A stretch of DNA of 64,000 nt, taken from Sphyrna mokarran (lineage: Eukaryota). The DNA lies in NCBI GenBank assembly GCA_024679065.1, contig JAGIQG010000003.1:38812001-38876000 (forward strand), read 5' to 3'. The position numbers and the translations under genes are program-made. The number at the start of each line of letters is the position of its first letter. The first letter of the stretch is position 1. Positions 2,759 through 59,620 of this stretch are shown in pieces. Under the pieces are notes generated by a model. That model did no database searches, was not told the DNA's origin, and saw nothing but the letters and a program-made list of their open reading frames with translations.

Positions 2759-2950
2759 AAGTTTATTTATTAGTGTCACAAGTTAGTTTACATTAACATA
2801 GCAATGAAGTTACTGTGAAAACCTCCTAACTGCCATATTCCAGAGCCTGTTCGGGTACACTGAGGGAGAATTTAGCATGGCCAATGCATCTAACCAGTAC
2901 ATGTTGCGGACTGTGGGAGGAAACCGGAGTGCCTGGAGGAAACCCACAAA
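2759..2950 (-). mobile_element. V-type SINE 3' part with alternative tail
   Basis: Reverse complement of the V body plus a ...cacagtaacttcattg...cttgtgacactaataaataaac tail. Confidence 0.75.
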
Positions 2951-2974
2951 GATATCATCACTATTATTGCATCA

Positions 2975-4883: not shown

Positions 4884-5663
4884 TAAGAACATAAGAAAGA
4901 GATGTAGGAGTAGGCCATTTAGCCCTTCGAGCCTGCCCCGCCATTCAATAAGATCATACTGATCGGAAGTGGTTCAGTTCCACTTTCCTGCTTTCTCCCC
5001 ATAACCCTTAATTCCCTGTCTATCAGAAATCTATCTACCCGTGACTTAAACATATTCAACAAGGTAGCCTCCATCACTTCAATGGGCAGAGAATTCCAGA
5101 GATTCACCATCCTTTGAGTGAAGAAGTTCCTCCTCAACTGTGTTCTAAACTGCCCCCTCCCCCCTTATTTTGAGGCTGTGCCCTCTAGTTTTGATTTCCT
5201 TTCCAAGTGGAAAGATTCTCTCTACCTCTACCCCTTTTTAGCTCCTTCGTTATCTTGTAAGTCTTTATAAGATCCCCCCATCAGCCTTCTAAACTCGAAC
5301 AAGTACAGGCCCAGTGTATTTAATGTCTCCTCATAAGCTAACCCCCTCATCTCCGGTATCAGCCTGGTGAACCTTTTCTGTACTTCCTCCAAGGCCAATA
5401 TATCCTTACGCAAATAAGGGGACCAAAACTGCAGACAGTACTCCAGCTGCTGCCTCACCAGTGCTCTGTACAATTGCAGTAAGATTTCCCTGCTTTTATA
5501 TTTTATCCCCCTCACTATAAAGGCCAACATTCCATTCTCCTTCTTGATCACCTGCTGCACCTGCAGACTGAGTTTTTGCGATTCGTGCACAAGAACCCCC
5601 TGGTCCCTCTGCACAGTGACATGCTGCAACTTTTCACCATTTAAATAATATTCCTTCCTATTT
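4884..5663 (-). mobile_element. CR1 LINE 3' fragment (host of the younger CR1; resumes at 7063-7122)
   Basis: ORFs 5228-5629 and 4919-5137 encode the CR1 ORF2 C-terminus (LEYCLQFWSPY, FFTQRMVNLWNSLP). (TTCTTATG)n tail at 4884. Confidence 0.92.
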
Positions 5664-5689
5664 TATTGTAGGAAGAGGGAGTAAGTGGA

Positions 5690-6529
5690 GTGATCAGCAA
5701 GTTTGCAGACGATACAAAGATGGCTGGACTTGCGGATAGTGAGGAGCATTGTCAGGCGATGCAGCAGGACATAGACAGGCTGGTAGCTTGGGCAGACAGA
5801 TGGCAGATTGAATTCAATCCTGATAAATGTGAGGTGATGCATTTCGGGAGAAAAAATGTAGGGGGGAGGTATATGATAAAGGGTAGACGTATTAAGAGTA
5901 TAGAAACGCAGAGGGATCTGGGAGTGCAGGTGAACAAGTCTCTGAAGGTGGCAGAGCAAGTGGAGAAGGTTGTGAAGAAAGCATATAGCATGCTAGCCTT
6001 TATAAGAAGGGGTATAGAGTACAAGAGCTGGCCTTTAATGTTGCAGTTGTACAAAACGCTGGTTAGACCTCATTTGGAATACTGCATCCAGTTCTGGTTG
6101 CCTTACTACCAGAAGGACGTGGAGACTCTGGAAAGAGTGCAGAGGAGGTTTACCAGGATGCTGCCCGGTATGGAAGGTCTGAGTTACGAGGAGAGATTAG
6201 GCGAATTGGGACTGTTTTCCTTAGAAAGACATAGACTTAGAGGAGATCTGATAGAGGTGTACAAGATTATGAAGGGGATAGATAGAGTAAACAGGGTTAA
6301 GCTTTTTCCTAGGATGGACTCAAATAGCACGAGGGGTCACGGGCTTAGGGTGAGGGGGGTAAGGTATAATTTGGATGCGAGAGGGAGTTTTTTCACACAG
6401 AGGGTGGTGGGGGTATGGAATGCGCTGCCAAGTAAAGTGGTGGAGGCAGGTACTCTGGAGTTATTTAAGAAATACTTAGATGGGCACATGAACAAAATGG
6501 GAATGGAGGGGTATAGAAAACTGATTTAA
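5690..6529 (+). CDS. CR1 ORF2 C-terminal part (RT FADD motif onward), 5'-truncated
   Basis: 279-aa open frame: [48 protein letters not shown]. Lacks the RT N-terminus and endonuclease. Confidence 0.9.
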   Translation: MISKFADDTKMAGLADSEEHCQAMQQDIDRLVAWADRWQIEFNPDKCEVMHFGRKNVGGRYMIKGRRIKSIETQRDLGVQVNKSLKVAEQVEKVVKKAYSMLAFIRRGIEYKSWPLMLQLYKTLVRPHLEYCIQFWLPYYQKDVETLERVQRRFTRMLPGMEGLSYEERLGELGLFSLERHRLRGDLIEVYKIMKGIDRVNRVKLFPRMDSNSTRGHGLRVRGVRYNLDARGSFFTQRVVGVWNALPSKVVEAGTLELFKKYLDGHMNKMGMEGYRKLI

Positions 6530-6616
6530 AATAGGGATCATGAGCCTTGGCAGTCCCTGGGAAGTGTGTAAATAGATGATGATATTGATGTACTTGTTTT
6601 TATCCTACAGGTGCTT

Positions 6617-6737
6617 TGGTCCACCTTGTTGTCTAACGAGGGGCATACACGCGATGGGTCGTGAGAGGGCTGCTCTTGGATTTTTTTCGAGAGTATCCTA
6701 CTGCTTCACATCGTTAGTGTACGCTTGACCTGGACCA
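6617..6737 (+). other. Predicted multi-stem RNA structure in CR1 3' UTR
   Basis: Hand-paired helices 6617-6623/6731-6737, 6624-6630/6635-6641, 6642-6656/6709-6725 and 6666-6680/6686-6699, with several G-U pairs. Confidence 0.6.
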
Positions 6738-7117
6738 TTTGATGGGCAACACGACAGCTCAGTGACTATCGCTGTGCTGTGCAGATACATGGATTTGGGC
6801 CTGTGTCTGTGGGAGTTTGCGCATTCTCCCCGTGCTTGCGTGGGTTTTCTCCGGGAGCTCCGGTTTCCTCCCACATCCCAAAGATGTGCTCTTAGGCTAA
6901 TTGGCAAAACAAATTCTCCCTAAATTGTCTCAAATTTGGTTTTTAATCCATAGACCTATAAACATGGACAGGGATCGCGTGTAGAAGTGGGAACATTGAG
7001 GTGGCGGCGCGGGCTCGTTGGGCCAAAGGGCCTGTTTCCCATGCTGTTTTTTGTTCTTTGTTCTATTTCTTCCAAAATGGATAATCTCACATTTGCTAAT
7101 GTTACACTCCATCTGCC

Positions 7118-7279
7118 ATCTTTGGATTTTGGGAAAAAACCAGAGCACCCAGAGGAAACCCACGCATACACAGGGAGAATATGCAAACTCCACATAGACA
7201 ATCACCCAAAGCTGGAATCAAACCCAGATCCCTGGCACTGTGAGGCAGCAGTACGAACTACTGTGCCCCCATGTCACCC
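7118..7279 (-). mobile_element. HE1/V-type SINE (head and body)
   Basis: Reverse complement of head and V body, joined to the CR1 at shared catctttg. Confidence 0.85.
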
Positions 7280-8538
7280 TAAAATGCTTTAAATAAAAAG
7301 TGGAATCACAAAGATAAAAAGGAAACTATTGCCCAGTTTTCAAAATCACAAATGGAATACTGATGAGAACTGGATTTTTCTGCATCTTGACAATGTCTGG
7401 TTCAGTTTCCCACAGCGGGTCCTGAAGCTCATTAATCCATGTAACTGCTGTATAACATGCTCATCAATGTCAGTCTTTCCTTACATTGTACAAAGGCTTT
7501 ATCATCTTGAGCGATAAAAGATTTAAGCAGTTTCTTCGCAGCAGGCTTCACTTTCATTTCTCACAATTACAAAGGCGGGTGTCACTTTTCAGAATATTTT
7601 GATTATTTTTCTACAGATAGGATTTGAAAATAAGAATTACCATTGTTCTGTCAAACAAAGCATGTTCAAATAAGTCTTTTTTTAAAAAAAATGTAGCTAG
7701 ACAATTAGAAGTTCATCCGCTGAATAGAAGTTGTGTTTTTCCAGGAATGAAGTAGTTAGTAATTTATTGCTTGTCCAGATTATTTAAAACACTTCTCATA
7801 CACAGGGTATCAGGAAGTCTTTTCAACCTGTCTGACAAGCAATGAACAGAGCAAAGCTTTCCGAACAAAAATCTAAGAGTCAGGCTTTTAAACAAACAGC
7901 TGTAAAAACATCAGCCAGGCTTGCAGAGATATAGACAGAGTTCAGGCATTATATCTAATTTTAGCAAGACAACCTACTGGTGTGGAGCAGTGCAGCATGC
8001 GTTATTGTTCACATTATAGGGTAGATGGTCCAGCTGAACAAAGTGAATTTGATCAAAACTGCTGGCTTGTCTGTTCAGCCACTTTAAAATAAAGCAGCTT
8101 AAATGATTCTGACCAAGCCTCATCTCACCAGGTGTCTGCATTAAGATGCTCAGACCACTTCTGGCAATGATTGGAATCACTGAACCAGAGAAGGTATTCA
8201 CAGCAGATCCAAATTGTAACAGTGGGAATCAAAACGAGTTGCAAAGAGAGGGAGACCCTTTCACAATGTAAATTCACAAGTTAAGCGAAAAGCAATCGAA
8301 AATTTTTTTTCATTTGGAAGCACACAAAGTAACATTTTAAAATTGAAGAGAACAAAATGAATTACACACACGATACTTATGTATCAAAACTAAAAGGAGT
8401 TGGCCCATTGCATCAGATGGATTATTGACCATGTTACCCATTTTGTATAATTTTTATCTTTCCTGAAACTCCTATTTCATTTCAAATAAATCATCTAAAT
8501 GAGAGTAAAGAGTAGCTCTAACATTAATGACTTTATGT

Positions 8539-8658: not shown

Positions 8659-9500
8659 GTATGTATTTAGTGGCTGAAAACCTCTGAATGAGTTTTAAAA
8701 ACAAGAAACAGCAGTTTCTAAGATGGCTGAACATTTGCTTGACTGAGCCTCACAAATTCCAAAGCCATTACAACAGAGTCAACCTTTCTAGAAAACCCAT
8801 CAGAAACAATAACCTTGAAAGAAAGCACACGGACTATATTCTAACCCATTCACAAAGTATTAGGTGCCAGCGGCTCAATGAAGTCCGGCAGTGAAAGAAA
8901 TTCACCCAGCCATAATCTAATCATGTAAACCATGGACTTGGAATGACCATGTCTAAAACTGGTTAGTTGCAAAGAGAAGGTCACATAACAAGCCAACGAA
9001 AGCTTTTTTGTGTGTTTAAGAAACCACTTTTCTTCAGGCCACAAGATAAAAGCAGAGTAGATGCCAAAAATCTGGCCCTCTAAATGGGCTACTCTTTTCT
9101 CGCTATCCAGCCTACAAATTTGATCCTTGGTTTGTTGTTCAATCACACATGTTACTGACAACATTTTAAGAATCAGCCCCGCAGCTGTTGACTCCATAAA
9201 ATGAGGTATAGTCATACTTAAATAATCCTGATGTTGAATTGAGAGGAACCATCAAGCTCAACTGGGAACCATTCAAGTCATCAGTCTACAAGACCCATAT
9301 AACTTTAACTTTAATTAGATACTGAAAAAAAAGGGCTTAATCTATCCTTCCACTCTATAACTTGTGGATGCATCCATGTGTGTGCAAGAACATTCGTGTG
9401 TGTAAAAGTCAGAGCATTTTAATTTTATTAGACTTGGTTAAATACAGTTAATACTATTCACTTTTCTTGCTTTCAAATAAATTTGTCCGTGCATGTCTTA

Positions 9501-9720
9501 GTAAGAAGTCTCACAACATCAGATTAAAGTCCAACCAGTTTGTTTGATAGTAATCCCACAAGCTTTTGGAAACAGTGTTCCTTCGCACATCTGATGAAGG
9601 AACACTGTTTCTGAAAGCTTTGTGGGATTACTATCAAATAAACCGGTTGGACTTTAACCGGGTATTGTGAGACTTCTTATTATGTTTACCCCAGTCCAAT
9701 GCCGGCATCTCTACCTCATG
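9501..9720. mobile_element. Inverted pair of Penelope-derived terminal repeats (family A)
   Basis: 9501-9584 is the imperfect reverse complement of ~9596-9680. Confidence 0.8.
9586..9624 (+). ncRNA. Putative minimal hammerhead ribozyme (core intact)
   Basis: CACA..CTGATGA(9591-9597)-AGGAAC/GTTTCT helix II-GAAA(9613-9616)-gc-TT-TGTG. Confidence 0.55.
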
Positions 9721-10520
9721 TGTACATCTCATACAGTCACAGCACACAGACAATTAAACATCACCGAATTGGCAAACACAGCCTTTAAAAAAACATGTTG
9801 TGGTCAAATGAGAAGTAGGGAAAGAGAAGAGCCATTCGACCCTTCCACACCTGAATTAACAGGATAATTCCAACAGATTGGGGTGAGTTAATTTCAACTA
9901 AATTGTCATCTTTGAGACCTATTCTAGCACACACAAATCAGCATGTCACAACTAAGCACACCACTTAACCAGCAGTAGTGCCATTGTTTGCCACTTGTTA
10001 TATGCATCAAGTACTCACTTATTCATTACAATCCCCATATAACAGTACATTTTTGCAATACACACCCAGGAAGAAGGCAACAATTCTGCACAAAAGGCTG
10101 GAAACAGCATGATCTTGGCAAGCCTGTTTCCACTGCCAAGTACAGAAATGCTTATTCAGCTTTATGCATATTCTTTTGCCTTTGACTTTAAAGAGAGACC
10201 ATTAAACTTTACATTCTGATGACGATTTCAACTTCATTTTCCTCAAAGAGATCAATCAAGAAAATGAGATTTTTTTTAAAAGTAAAACCAAGTCATATAC
10301 AAGATCTGCAAGATTTAACATTTGAATTAAGACACTGTTATCACTGTTCTTTCAAACATGTGCCTCAAAAGTGCCAACAGTTTTAACTTCAGAGGTCAAA
10401 ATTCAACTAAATTACCAGTTAAACACATGAACAAGAAGACATTGAAAATGAACATGCATCCAAGTATCACACTTGATAATATGGATGTAACTGTCTCCAA
10501 AAGTGGATTTTATTTGAAAA

Positions 10521-10833: not shown

Positions 10834-11104
10834 TCAACAGTGATGAGCTCTTTCCACATGCAAACAGGGATTGTTGCAAAGACTAATAGAAGATGGGGAT
10901 TATACAATTACTCATACAATATATTCCTTTTTCTCAGCTACATTATACAGTTTCAAAATAACAAGCCAATTCATATCAAATAAATGCAGGGAATAATTTT
11001 AAAATCAGTACTAGTTCAAACCAGAAAACAGGTCCCAAATTAATTGATCGAGTGGTGAAAAATAACTTCACCAAGGAGAAACATGACCATAACATTTTAA
11101 AATT

Positions 11105-11400
11105 TAAAATTTATTTATTATTGTCACAAGTAGGCTCACATTAGCATTGCAATGAAGTTGAAGTTACTGTGAAAATCCCTGAGTCACCACCTGTAATGAT
11201 ATACTGAGGGAGTATTTAACATGGCCAATGCACCTAACCAGCACAATTGTTGGACTGTGGGAGGAAATCAGAGCACCCAGAGGAAAGCCATGCAAACATG
11301 AGTAGAACATGCAGATTTCACACAGTCAGTGACCCAAGTGGGAACCAAACCCAGGTCCCTGGTGTTGTGAGGCAGCACTGCTAATCACTGCACCACCCAC
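11105..11400 (-). mobile_element. V-type SINE with alternative tail
   Basis: Head at ~11400, V body, tail ...cacagtaacttc...cctacttgtgacaataataaat. Confidence 0.8.
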
Positions 11401-25710: not shown

Positions 25711-26411
25711 TCACCCAGGTTTTGCCATTATTCAGATTGTCAGGTGTCTTGTGCAAGGAATTCAACCGCCTGAGTCTTTCAGGAGGCACAGGCTACTTTA
25801 ACCTATACAAGCCTCTGACGATTTTGAACCCCCTGCTGAAGCATAGTTATATCTGGCTGCATGCTAATGTTATGGTAATGAGTTGGCAAGATGCCCATGT
25901 CACAATAAACAGAGCAGGGTGATCATGCCATGTGATTCCTATTCCTGTTTCAGGGCTGTCCAATTTAACTCCCACAAACTTTCTGGAGACTTTGCTGATA
26001 GGCAGCAAACAGAAAATGTAGTCATTGAACGCTAACTCTATTGAACAAATACATAAATCACAATAAAAATAAATCACACCACTAAATCAAGATTGTGTTA
26101 TGTTTATATTGATATACTGTGTATGCTGAGGAAAATATAAAAGAATCATTGACTAAATTTTGATGTGAAATGTAAATAGTTTGACAACTATTATTGCAAA
26201 TTAATCTGAGAGTTCTTTCAGTGTAATAGGAAAGTATTTGTGCAAGTTGCACAAATTATCTCAGGTCATTTCTGACCCCTGGTGCAAATTTGGGAACAGA
26301 ATAGATGTCTTCGCTGTTCTGCGTTCCCAGTAAGAAAATGTTACATCTCAAGTTCCAAGGTAAACACAGTTACAAAAATAGGCTGGAAATAGTTTTGTTA
26401 TTTTTAAGACA

Positions 26412-26705
26412 ACACAATGGCACAGTTGTTATCACTGCTGGCTCAGAATGCCAGGGACCCGGGTTCGATTCCTGGCTTGAGTCACTGAGTGTGTAAAGGT
26501 TGCACGTTCTCCTTGTGTCCATGTGAGTTTCCTCCGGTTGCTCTGGCTTTCTCTCACAGTCTGAAAAATGTGCTGATTAGGTGCATTGACCATACCAAAG
26601 TCTCCCTCAGTGTAACCGAGCAGGTGCGGTTTTAGTGACTAGGAGATTTCCACAGTAACTTCATTGCAGTGTTAAGGTAAGCCTACTTGTTACACTGATA
26701 AGTTT
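26412..26705 (+). mobile_element. V-type SINE with alternative tail
   Basis: Box B GGTTCGATTCC, V body, tail cacagtaacttcattgcagtgttaaggtaagcctacttg. Confidence 0.85.
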
Positions 26706-27987
26706 TAAAGGAGTTTGGAACATCAAATTGATGGCCTTGAATATTTACATTTTAATCACCTTTGTTTTCATAAGTTTAGGATTTAAAAGCATTACATTCA
26801 TTGAACATTTAAATTCAACTATTTTCTAAACCCATCCATTAAAATATGGTCAAAAGTTCCAAACTTTAACAACTAACTTACCAAAGAGAGTGCATATCTA
26901 TTATCCTTTTAAAATATAAAACTTCCCCTGAGAAAGGAAAAGCAAATCCCCATTTATATTCAAAGTGCAAAGTATCATTCATCAACTGGAAACAATTACA
27001 AAATTTAACAACATATATCAAGTACAGAGCTCCAAACAAAGGTAACATTTCCTTGTTTTTCTGGTTCCCTCATGCAGAGGATATGGCAATGTTTCCATAC
27101 TATATATTGTCTCAAACTAAGTACCCCCCAGCCCCCTTTTCGGACTTCAGCTGCTTCTGTTTTAAGGTACCAAGCCCAATTCTAGTAATATTGAGGCAAC
27201 TATAAAAGACAAGAAAATTGTCTTTTTCTAGACATTCTGGATTTCAAAGAGAATGACAATTTCTTGCGGAAATCAACCACAACAGAATGACAACTGAACA
27301 GAAGACTGGATCTAATTGACAAAATGTATAATACAAAAGGTTAATTGGGTTGTTTGAACACTGGTGAAGGCTTGCCGGTTTGAGACAATCAGCCCCCTGT
27401 ATGTATTTTGTGTACTAATACATGATAAGAAATGGATTGGATTTGCAAAAGAAAACACAACTATCACTGTAGTCCTTTCACTATGAGCTTTGGATATCTG
27501 CAACCCACAGTACTATTCTTCATGCTCTAGTGGGTCAGCAACTAGTCTCTGGTGCATCAAAACCAATACCAAACTGCTTGCATTAATTAGTTCCTTCCGT
27601 TGTAGCTCTATAATGAGGCTCTTTGGGAGTCGAGAGATTAAGGGGAGAAAAGCATTGAGATATGTCTATGTGAGAATGAAAGATGTGAAAGCAGTCATAC
27701 CAGGGCAAATTTTAATCCTGTTTTTCTTCCCCCATTATTAGCAGTATTGACTTGATAATGAGTCGTTCCGAATTTCTTTTCAACTCTCCACATGCTAACA
27801 TTTCATAACTGTGGCATCTGAATTTAAGCATTGTTGTCAATATGAGCTACAACCTTACCAATACACCAAATATTGAAGTAATTTTCTGACTGCAAAACAT
27901 TTTGTATTGCAGAGTTCTTTTGGAAGCTGCACACCATATCTTTGTTGCATTCACAGGTAATCTTACAGTCAAAAAACAAATATTCAT

Positions 27988-34232: not shown

Positions 34233-34404
34233 AATGTGGAGTTGCCAGCGTTGGACTGGGATGGGCACAGTAACAAGTCTCATAACACCAGGTTAAAAGT
34301 CCGACAGATTTGTTTGGTAGGATGAGCTTTCGTATAACTGCCCCTTCCCTCACCTGATGAAGGGACAGTGCTCTGGAAGCTTATTCTATCAAGTAAACCT
34401 GTTG
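34233..34404. mobile_element. Inverted Penelope-derived mini-element (family A) with TSD
   Basis: Inverted arms around tcacCTGATGA (34354-34360; GAAA changed to GGAA). TSD aac(a/g)ctaactag at 34221-34232 and 34405-34416. Confidence 0.75.
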
Positions 34405-34778
34405 AACGCTAACTAGCGCACAGTTTAATGAGGCATAGAAATATTTTTTCTTGGTTTGCTCAAAATGAATAACAAATTTTATTTTGTATTTTTTCTTTCT
34501 GAAACAACTTGATATAAAATGCCATTTGGAAACATATCTTTTCAGTTCTTCTCACTGTATGAAGAGCTGGTGTGATGACACTGTTGGCAAACCAATCTGC
34601 AGATGCTGACAAAGAACATCACAGTGACAACCAAAGCTTGCCCTTCTTTCATCCCCACCACCAAATTTCACACAAAGTACCATAAATAGCAATGAGTAAA
34701 CTGGCCAGATAATCAATTTTTTGGGGTATTGATAAATTGACATGGGAAGAACGTGCTTGCTCAGTGTCATGGACCACT

Positions 34779-35300
34779 ACAAAGAACAAAGAAAATTATA
34801 GTACAGTAACAGGCCCTTCAGCCCTCCAAGCCTGCACCAACCACACTGCCTGTATGAACCAAAAACTTCTATCCTTCCAGAGACTATATCCCTCTATTCC
34901 CATTCAATTCATGTGTTTGTTCAGGCACTCCTCAAAAGTCACTATCGTATCTGCTTCCACTTACTCTCTTGGCAGCGAGTTCCAAGCACACACCATTCCC
35001 TGTGTGAAAAACTTGCCTCGTACATCTCCTTTAAAACTTACCCTTCTTTGACTCTTCTACCCTGGGAAGAAGCTTCTCACTATCCATTCTGTCCATGCCC
35101 TTCATAATCTTGCAGGCTTCTATCAGTCTCCCTCAACCTTTGTCATTCCAGTGAGGATAAACCAGGTTTCTCCAACTTCTCCTCATAGCTAATGTCGTCC
35201 ATACCAAGCTACATTCTGGTAAATCTTTTTTATACCCTTTCCAAATTCTCCACATCCTTCTGGTAGTGTGATGGCCAGAATTGAACATATATTCAACTGC
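34779..35300 (-). mobile_element. CR1 LINE 3' fragment
   Basis: CR1 C-terminal sequence (cacatccttctggtagtgtgatggccagaattg) and a (TTCTTTG)n tail. Confidence 0.85.
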
Positions 35301-36134: not shown

Positions 36135-36670
36135 TAGGCCACAGCTCAAGCAGTTCTGGATATCACCTCGTTGGAAGAATATATTGGTCTCAGCTGGGAG
36201 GACAAAAATGCTCTGGAGAGAATGCAAAGGAGATTACAGGAAAGTTGCCAGAGCTTGAAAATTGCAGCTACAATGAAAGATTGAATAGGTTAGGATTGTT
36301 TTCCTTGGAACAGAACAGACAAAGGGCTGACTAATTGAGTTTTAGAAAATTGTGAGGAAACTAGATAGAGTAGAACAGGAAAACGCTGTTTCCCTAGCTT
36401 TGGGGCCAATTACCAGGGGGCATAGATTTAAGACGATTGGTAGAAGGATTAAAGGCTGCAAAATGAAAACCTTTTTTCACCAGAGGCTGGTTGGCAGCTG
36501 GAATTCCCTGCCCAAACTGGTGGTTAAGGCTGAAATGCTCAACTCCTTCAAAAAGGCACCTGGATCAGCATTTAAAATACCATAGCTTGTAAGGCTATGG
36601 ACCAAGTGCCAACGTAGACATGATGGCTGCATGGCATTTTTCTTCATTACAACTTTTCTAATGGTTCAAT
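36135..36670 (+). mobile_element. Old CR1 LINE 3' fragment
   Basis: ORF 36352-36585 TRGHRFK...FFHQRLVGSWNSLP. Confidence 0.8.
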
Positions 36671-52202: not shown

Positions 52203-52522
52203 TTAAAAGCCATTGGACAAGACTTTTGATCGGAATGAATTCAAACACTTTTTTTGCTTTGGGTCTTTGGTATTTATTTCATGAACTGGCTGGTCCAACG
52301 GATGCACAAACAGCTTAGTGTAGATTTGTATGTCATTTGTACCTGGAGCCTGCTGCTTGAAGTTGCCTTCTGAGGGCTTCAGGGTACAGGTGATATGCAG
52401 ATCCACACTAAGCTGTTCCAGCATCCGTTGGCTCAGCAAATTCATGAAATATACACCAAAGACCCAAAGCAGAAAAAGTGTTTGAATTCATTTAGACTGA
52501 AAGCCTTGTCTAATGTCTTTAA
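52203..52522. repeat. 320-bp imperfect palindrome (~148-bp arms, 24-nt spacer)
   Basis: 52203-52350 aligns to the reverse complement of 52375-52522, for example aatgaattcaaacactttt..tgctttgggtctttggt. Confidence 0.92.
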
Positions 52523-58493: not shown

Positions 58494-59620
58494 TAAGAAG
58501 TCTCACAACACGAGGTCCAACAGGTTTATTTGGTAGTAAATATCACTAGCTTTCAGAGTTTGCCCCTTCGTCAGATGAGTGGGAGTTCTGATCACAAACA
58601 GGGCATATAAAAACAGACATAGTTTACAAAATACTGATTAGAATGCGAGTCTTTACAGCTAATCAAGTCTTAAAGATGCAGACAATATGAGTGGAGATAG
58701 CATTAAGCATAGGTTAAAGAGACGTGTATTGTTTCCAGACAGGACAGTAAGTGAGATGTTGAAAGGTCAGGCAAGTCATGGGGGTTACAAATAATGTGAC
58801 ATAAACCCAAGATCCCAGTTGAGGCCATCCTCACGTGTGTGGAACTTGGTTATCGGTTTCTGCTCAGCAATTCTGCGCTGTCATTTGTCATGAAGGCCAC
58901 TTTGGAGAACGTTTACCCGAAGATCAGAGGCCGAATACCCATGACCGCTGAAGTGTTCACCAACAGGAAGGGAACAGTCTTGCCTGACAATTGTCAAGCA
59001 GTGTTCATTCATCTGTTATCATAGAGTCTGCATGGTCTCTCCAACGTACCATGCCTCGGGACATCCTTTCCTGCAGCGTATCAGGTAGACAACGTTGGCC
59101 AAGTTGCAAGAGTATGTGCCGTGTACCTGGTGGATGGTGTTCTCACATGAGATGATGGCATCCATGTTGATGATCCAGCATGTCTTGCAGAGGTTGCTGT
59201 GGCAGGGTTGTGTGGTGTTGTGGTCACTGTTCTCTTGAAGGCTGGGTAGTTTGCTGTGGACAATAGTCTGATTGAGGTTGTACAGTTGTTTGAAGGCAAG
59301 AAATGGGGGCATGGGGATGGCCTTGGCAAGATGCTCATCTTCATCGATGACACATAGCTTCTCCGCTCCAGGGAAGTATTGGACAACGAAGGGTACTCTG
59401 TCCACTGTGTCCCACTTTTGTCTTCTGAGGAAGTCGGTGCGATTTTTCACTGTGGCGCATCAGAACTGTTGATTGATGAGTCCAGTGCCATATCCTGTTC
59501 TTATAAGGGCATCTTTCAGCATCTGGAGGAGTCTGATCCGATCCTCCTCATCGAGCAGATCCTGTGTACATGGCAGGCTTGTCCATAAAGGATGGCTTCT
59601 TTAACGTGTTTAGGATCGAT
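58494..59620 (-). mobile_element. 5'-truncated Penelope-like element (Cys motif plus GIY-YIG endonuclease, terminal repeat)
   Basis: ORF 59019-59450: RVPFVVQY.PG, PC...CKTC, NVVYLIRC..GC...YVGET (GIY-YIG). Family A terminal repeat at 58494-58580. Confidence 0.9.
58543..58578 (-). ncRNA. Putative minimal type I hammerhead ribozyme (core intact)
   Basis: Minus strand TCAT-CTGACGA-aggggcaaactct-GAAA-gc-TA-GTGA; helix I TCAT/GTGA; same strand as the GIY-YIG ORF. Confidence 0.65.

Follow-up and report, generated by a model that had tools for sequence, protein, structure and literature searches.

It is unexplained why SINE bodies, V among them, have changed so little across hundreds of millions of years. 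For the long conservation of SINE bodies in general, the available part of PMC5499810 sets out three models, namely help with the partner LINE, a recombination hot spot and a benefit to the host. The closest described pair is that of HE1, a shark V-SINE, and HER1, its CR1-like partner LINE in sharks and rays (PMC3747384, PMC4824008, in their available parts). As in that pair, a tRNA-derived head, a V body and a CR1-type tail follow one another in this order at the locus described here, together with a CR1 ORF2 of the elasmobranch type. Unlike in HE1/HER1, the head and the V body lie inside the LINE's own 3' UTR and have no B box, the free SINEs used for comparison being probably of the HE1 type.

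Capture of SINE pieces by other elements has precedents. A case in point concerns MER6, a Mariner-derived MITE with a V domain (PMC6887750, available part), in which a V-SINE piece was likewise captured and spread by a mobile element; its carrier, however, is a non-autonomous DNA element and not the partner LINE, and no selection at the RNA level is expected there. Along the same line, SINE- or tRNA-like pieces are found in LINE consensus sequences, such as a Ceph-SINE/RTE-like stretch in the 5' UTR of Ingi-3_AC and a tRNA-like stretch in RTE-1_DAn, and recombination with a SINE has been suggested for LINEs of this kind (PMC5786205, available part). These belong to other LINE clades, hold the piece in the 5' UTR or at an unstated position, and contain no V domain, whereas the Repbase survey of the same paper, in the part available, names only RTE and Vingi as contributors of SINE bodies and reports no match between CR1 and V. 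Chimeric Alu/LINE-1 insertions also combine a SINE and a LINE in the same orientation within one target-site duplication (TSD; PMC13174262, available part), yet they are one-off events that mostly involve a full-length, then-active Alu and the 5' end of L1, while the shark SINE piece is internal, 3' of ORF2 and promoter-dead. A search of the openly readable literature turned up no CR1 family whose 3' UTR holds a V-SINE. Walsh et al. 2013 reportedly described BovB LINEs with fragments of CHR2 SINEs at their ends; if so, there too a LINE family took up SINE pieces and kept spreading, although BovB is of the RTE clade and the SINE is not its partner, unlike in the shark CR1 case. Precedents are thus at hand both for a DNA element that took up V and for LINEs of other clades with SINE-like pieces.

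Here, I describe such an arrangement in a 64-kb stretch of Sphyrna mokarran DNA, the whole of which is called the window. The reading I prefer, with a probability of roughly one half and with one copy examined, is that an ancestral CR1 subfamily captured the head and the V domain of a V-SINE in its 3' UTR long ago and has carried them since. That an active, autonomous CR1 lineage has domesticated the head hairpin and V domain of its own parasite as a selected RNA element of the 3' UTR is a more tentative proposal, in which I would place somewhat less belief. The lineage is presumably multi-copy and the module presumably under selection. If the proposal is true, V would be conserved without a Pol III promoter and without the borrowing of a LINE, which would point to a function in the retrotransposon RNA itself, testable in cis; sequence would have flowed from a SINE to its partner LINE, against the usual direction, and shark repeat libraries would be prone to mis-annotation on this account. 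A LINE family carrying V in its own UTR would also separate the three models of conservation and open the first of them, help with the partner LINE, to a direct test. Were the copy a one-off chimera, its significance would be small.

The copy spans positions 5664-7062 (+) and is flanked by two copies of the 6-bp TSD CTATTT, the left at 5658-5663 (+) and the right at 7063-7068 (+). It interrupts an older minus-strand CR1, whose 3' part lies outside the element at 4885-5657 and which continues at 7069-7121, followed by a free SINE (~7111-7278, minus strand). Once 5664-7068 is deleted, the frame of this host element is stop-free, so that 5664 and 7062 are the correct ends, and the single TSD that the initial annotation had placed around the ORF2 end and the UTR holds on both counts. 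The 5' junction (5664-5671, +) is that of a truncated copy, with 8 nt ending in a stop of the ORF2 frame. With a TSD and a 5' truncation, hallmarks of target-primed reverse transcription, the copy is one recent, 5'-truncated insertion that arose in a single event. The surrounding stretch (4885-7280) is a set of nested insertions, the old CR1 being broken by the LINE copy and, ~45 nt further on, by the free SINE.

Inside the element, the 3' end of a CR1 ORF2 (5672-6529, +) comprises the end of the reverse transcriptase (RT) domain and the C-terminal region, without stop or frameshift; the initial annotation was right about the open frame but not about its length, which is 285 codons from stop to stop and not 279. 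Homologous to these 285 aa are 5,560 proteins at E ≤ 1e-20, the named ones being RT-type proteins of sharks, rays, turtles and birds; the records themselves read "reverse transcriptase", and the proteins are probably of the CR1 type. The nearest proteins among the matches listed are four unnamed records with 76-80% identity, named shark proteins reaching at most 66%; when longer proteins were searched, none of the 120 matches listed exceeded 68%. As none of the matches listed exceeds 80% identity, a young high-copy family is not demonstrated. A tree was built from 45 rows, comprising the query, 31 selected homologues and 13 pieces from the window, of which 10 were short. There, the four proteins at 76-80% group with the query alone, with support of 99/99, and no window copy falls inside this group. 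Protein search and tree agree in making this ORF2 homologous to CR1 RT, and from its sequence the LINE appears to be a distinct subfamily among the chondrichthyan-type (shark-type) CR1s. The 285-aa end of this 5'-truncated copy, checked for RT and endonuclease domains, gave no Pfam match. None of the 128 frames of at least 72 aa in the window matched Pfam, and no host gene was found; this screen took 128 of 133 frames, three others being run separately and two antisense frames of the ORF omitted.

The 3' UTR (6530-7062) is 533 nt long, whereas six further CR1 3' ends elsewhere in the window, read by eye and all outside the ORF2 clade of the query, have UTRs of ~55-100 nt, much as first annotated (~530 nt against ~100 nt elsewhere); a seventh CR1 end, near 36600, has no recognisable tail. 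With no window copy inside the query's clade, the window is uninformative on the UTR length of sister copies. The UTR is also rich in CpG, with an observed/expected ratio of 0.65 against 0.24 in the window, and its 20 CpGs are matched by none of 116 windows of the same size. The stretch between the stop codon and the SINE head (6530-6743) has 7 of them, a count that 3 of 291 windows reach.

This stretch begins with a proximal part without a detected homologue (6530-6612, +) and continues with a predicted folded domain (6613-6742, +), a three-way junction with a long G-U-rich hairpin seen on the sense strand only. The fold z-score of 6614-6713 is -2.8 on the sense strand and +0.4 on the antisense strand, and on the sense strand 6613-6742 lies within the most stable 0.33% of 10,646 windows, the adjacent 6745-6874 within 0.56%. 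Neither a homologue nor an Rfam match was found for 6613-6742. Over the whole UTR, Rfam returned one chance match (E = 4) and none when repeated, which leaves a 5S or other small-RNA head upstream unsupported; a stretch at 6607-6655 that resembles the tail in inverted orientation was rejected as not significant (p 0.06-0.37). Directly before the folded domain, at 6590-6616 (+), a pyrimidine tract is followed by CAG/G at 6611/6612, resembling a splice acceptor.

That 214 nt without a homologue separate the stop codon from the head would be accounted for if a tail-less source element had read through into a flank ending in an old SINE, a 3' transduction present in one or a few copies, and the splice-acceptor-like motif could then be genomic. 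But flanking DNA is CpG-poor, as the rarity of windows with 7 CpGs, and the lack of any with 20, makes plain, and old free SINEs lose both their CpGs and their head folds, which the UTR module has kept. Transduction is accordingly rated as quite improbable.

The SINE-derived part opens with the 5' half of a tRNA-like head (6744-6780, +), in which the A box is degenerate and a hairpin at 6754-6780 seems to have been kept by compensatory changes. A second predicted hairpin (6781-6810, +) stands in place of the missing B-box/T-arm stretch, ~18-20 nt long in free copies. A position weight matrix built from 9 free heads gives 20.8 bits at 6745, above all 126,578 of the 126,578 background positions and lower than intact free heads, whereas by pairwise comparison the match is weak (shuffle p 0.02). 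The homology is limited to the first ~37 nt, the B-box stretch being absent from the alignment. A profile HMM of the free heads did not match the UTR head, ARAGORN and Rfam found no tRNA there, and an A/B box pattern with at most one mismatch was not met at the head, the same pattern also missing several decayed free copies. The diverged tRNA-like head first annotated at ~6744 is therefore real by the weight matrix, its tRNA derivation resting on homology of the 5' half to the free heads.

Over 28 nt, this head departs from the free-SINE consensus by 11 substitutions and one deletion (~41% diverged), and its hairpin has an energy of -14.0 kcal/mol against -13.4 for the consensus, a stability attained by 0.28% of 20,000 random mutants. 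Of the 9 free head copies, with 2-5 changes each, 7 to 8 fall at -4.3 to -8.5 kcal/mol, and one at -13.9. Two G-C pairs have become A-U pairs by double changes in the UTR head, a count favoured by the structure having been taken from the same row. The hairpin was picked after the fold had been seen, and the reference is the consensus of the window's free SINEs, perhaps not the donor.

Downstream follows a V-type SINE body (6804-6921, +). By BLAST, 6792-6921 is 72-81% identical to the free SINEs of the window, and a profile of 10 free copies gives this piece 102.5 bits, which upholds the V-type body as homology to these SINEs. The latter are probably HE1-type V-SINEs, and the shared body is probably the V domain. 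The V core (6804-6888) differs from the free-copy consensus at 10 of 85 sites and is 88% identical to it (11.6% diverged), whereas 11 of 11 free copies are 16-23% diverged.

A core nearer to the consensus than any free copy could speak for the LINE UTR as the source of the V domain, as the initial annotation had also suggested, and a LINE origin of conserved SINE bodies has been proposed (PMC5786205, available part). Yet the tRNA-derived head is properly placed upstream of V, at the position it has in a SINE, which sets the direction as SINE to LINE; V-SINEs occur from vertebrates to cnidarians (PMC4824008, available part) while the ORF2 makes up one subclade among chondrichthyan-type CR1s; and V is absent from five distant CR1 ends in GTDB and from the six ends of the window. 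A LINE source is therefore not supported and is, to my mind, scarcely credible.

Divergence along the captured module is uneven, 11 of 27 sites being changed in the head against 10 of 85 in the V core (p = 0.002), while in free copies it is 13.5% in the head and 18.5% in the V core. Of the CpG sites inferred for the V core, 4 of 6 are kept here, whereas the free copies keep 11 of 57 (p = 0.025), and the head has kept 0 of 3; the retention of CpGs first claimed for the SINE-like part thus stands for the V core, as for the whole UTR with its 20, and fails for the head. Retention of the V-core fold is borderline (p = 0.05, i.e. 5% of 3,000 simulations). There is no significant inner TSD around the module (p = 0.50), so that it lacks, as annotated, a TSD of its own and the mark of an independent insertion. 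A wider, degenerate direct repeat at 6534-6544 / ~6990-7002 (+) would bracket the additional stretch of UTR, but at p = 0.10 it is no more than suggestive; removing the stretch between its arms would leave a UTR of normal length. The module is of SINE origin, with a divergence both uneven and structure-preserving, and with the head hairpin and the CpGs of the V core kept it does not, as first proposed, look like a decayed secondary insertion. Together with the position of the module inside one TSD and behind an intact stop codon, these observations support indirectly that it descends from a lineage that replicated under selection on its RNA, and did not simply decay where it stands; the tests for signs of replication are each modest, some were picked post hoc, and all agree.

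A spacer (6922-7001, +) separates the V body from the tail and has no significant match to the free-SINE spacer (p 0.21) or to CR1 ORF2 ends (p 0.22), the 77 nt at 6925-7001 matching neither; a duplicated ORF2 end in the spacer was considered and rejected. The tail proper (7002-7062, +) is of the CR1 type, with a stem-loop at 7019-7034 and then a short terminal repeat of the TTCTTTG type, which it shares with the CR1 at 34785-34990. The stem-loop is no more stable than its shuffles (z -0.74). Against a profile built from six CR1 tails, this 61-nt end reaches 31.3 bits, and against one built from six free-SINE tails 11.9. In pairwise alignments the two best CR1 copies, one of which has the same terminal repeat, reach 55 and 51, against 24-35 for seven free SINEs. 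The initial annotation had an ordinary CR1 tail after the V body, which is confirmed, and also proposed the SINE as the functional 3' end, which is not supported, the tail being closer to CR1 and the preceding 77 nt being like neither. As the tail fits CR1 better than a free SINE, the SINE piece reads, as far as the sequence goes, as internal, ahead of a LINE-type tail.

The same tail scores weigh on a variant of lineage-level capture, in which the SINE would have replaced the whole 3' end of the LINE and the tail recognised by ORF2 would derive from a SINE subfamily. The stretch 6744-7062, 319 nt, has about the length of a free copy, the full free-SINE profile aligns over 6792-7038, and no other tail lies between the stop codon and the head; set against this are the CR1-like tail, by profile and by best pairwise match, and a spacer unlike that of the SINE. 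Replacement of the whole 3' end is unlikely in this light.

The junction between ORF2 and UTR bears on how the two came together. It lies directly after the stop codon, which is placed in ORF2 as in the nearest protein, P0012, and among the 120 listed matches, all tested, no protein relative reads on into the UTR. The position of the junction counts for capture, because a one-off switch need not respect the end of an ORF. In such a switch, RT would have started on a separate, non-autonomous V-bearing RNA and then been switched or ligated to a CR1 mRNA, and the resulting chimera would be confined to one locus. SINE/LINE chimeras with a single TSD are common in mammals, with 452 Alu/L1 cases (PMC13174262, available part), a single copy has been seen here (n = 1), and structure and CpG signals indicate that the module replicated, not from which promoter. 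On the other hand, a module that has no B box but 214 nt of additional sequence upstream of its head does not qualify as a functional Pol III SINE, the junction comes immediately past the stop codon, and the Alu/L1 survey, in its available part, covered L1 5' ends, which is the opposite order. A one-off chimera is, like replacement of the whole end, an unlikely account.

If capture by an ancestral CR1 is the right reading, the head and V domain of a V-SINE would have entered the 3' UTR of a master CR1, by insertion or template switch, upstream of the CR1-type tail. Its transcription having passed to the LINE RNA, the SINE piece would for that reason have lost its Pol III promoter, while RNA folds and V core would have been kept. 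ORF2 would recognise the terminal stem-loop and repeat, prime there and copy the entire 533-nt UTR; recognition of a stem-loop by stringent LINEs has been shown for L2, SART1 and R2, not for CR1 (PMC5135761, available part). Within the LINE transcript, the captured piece would most probably serve as a structured RNA element that contributes to stability, to the assembly of the RNP or to the way in which the tail is presented.

Further copies were sought in several collections. BLAST within the 64 kb of the window revealed no second copy, and nothing for 6530-6790 or 6922-7062; plasmid and phage records gave no match. A GTDB scan recovered 8 CR1-like loci on contaminant contigs, at 50-76% identity, none of the eight with a match to the UTR (five had short UTRs, one was cut off and two did not reach the end of the ORF). 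An antisense frame across head and V gave no candidate protein, and the matches to a 50-aa frame of the UTR were 2 low-complexity ones, due to chance. The consensus library of PMC13343379, in its available part, includes shark CR1 families, and a motif search met no match within the first 400 characters per entry, a stretch outside which the 3' ends lie. The collections searched contain little shark DNA, hence these blanks weigh little as regards a second copy. The vertebrate-type CR1s in bacterial genome records (L001-L007; P0002, P0003, P0181) are most likely contaminant contigs.

Other features of the window deserve mention. A second type of free SINE, at 11095-11400 (-), 26410-26710 (+) and 2766-2955 (-), has the same head and a V-like body with a different 3' tail, so that, alongside the HE1-like copies, two tail types occur on one SINE body within the same genome. 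At 2625-2955, two truncated SINE pieces lie back to back in opposite orientation. A frame of 146 codons at 59022-59459 (-), without a Pfam match, looks similar to the GIY-YIG end of Penelope-like elements. Long self-complementary repeats occur at 9499-9741 and 52206-52520, which on either strand fold more stably than anything else in the window (z -15.7 and -9.8), and a weaker one at 34234-34413; all three look like Penelope-derived or MITE-like hairpin elements.
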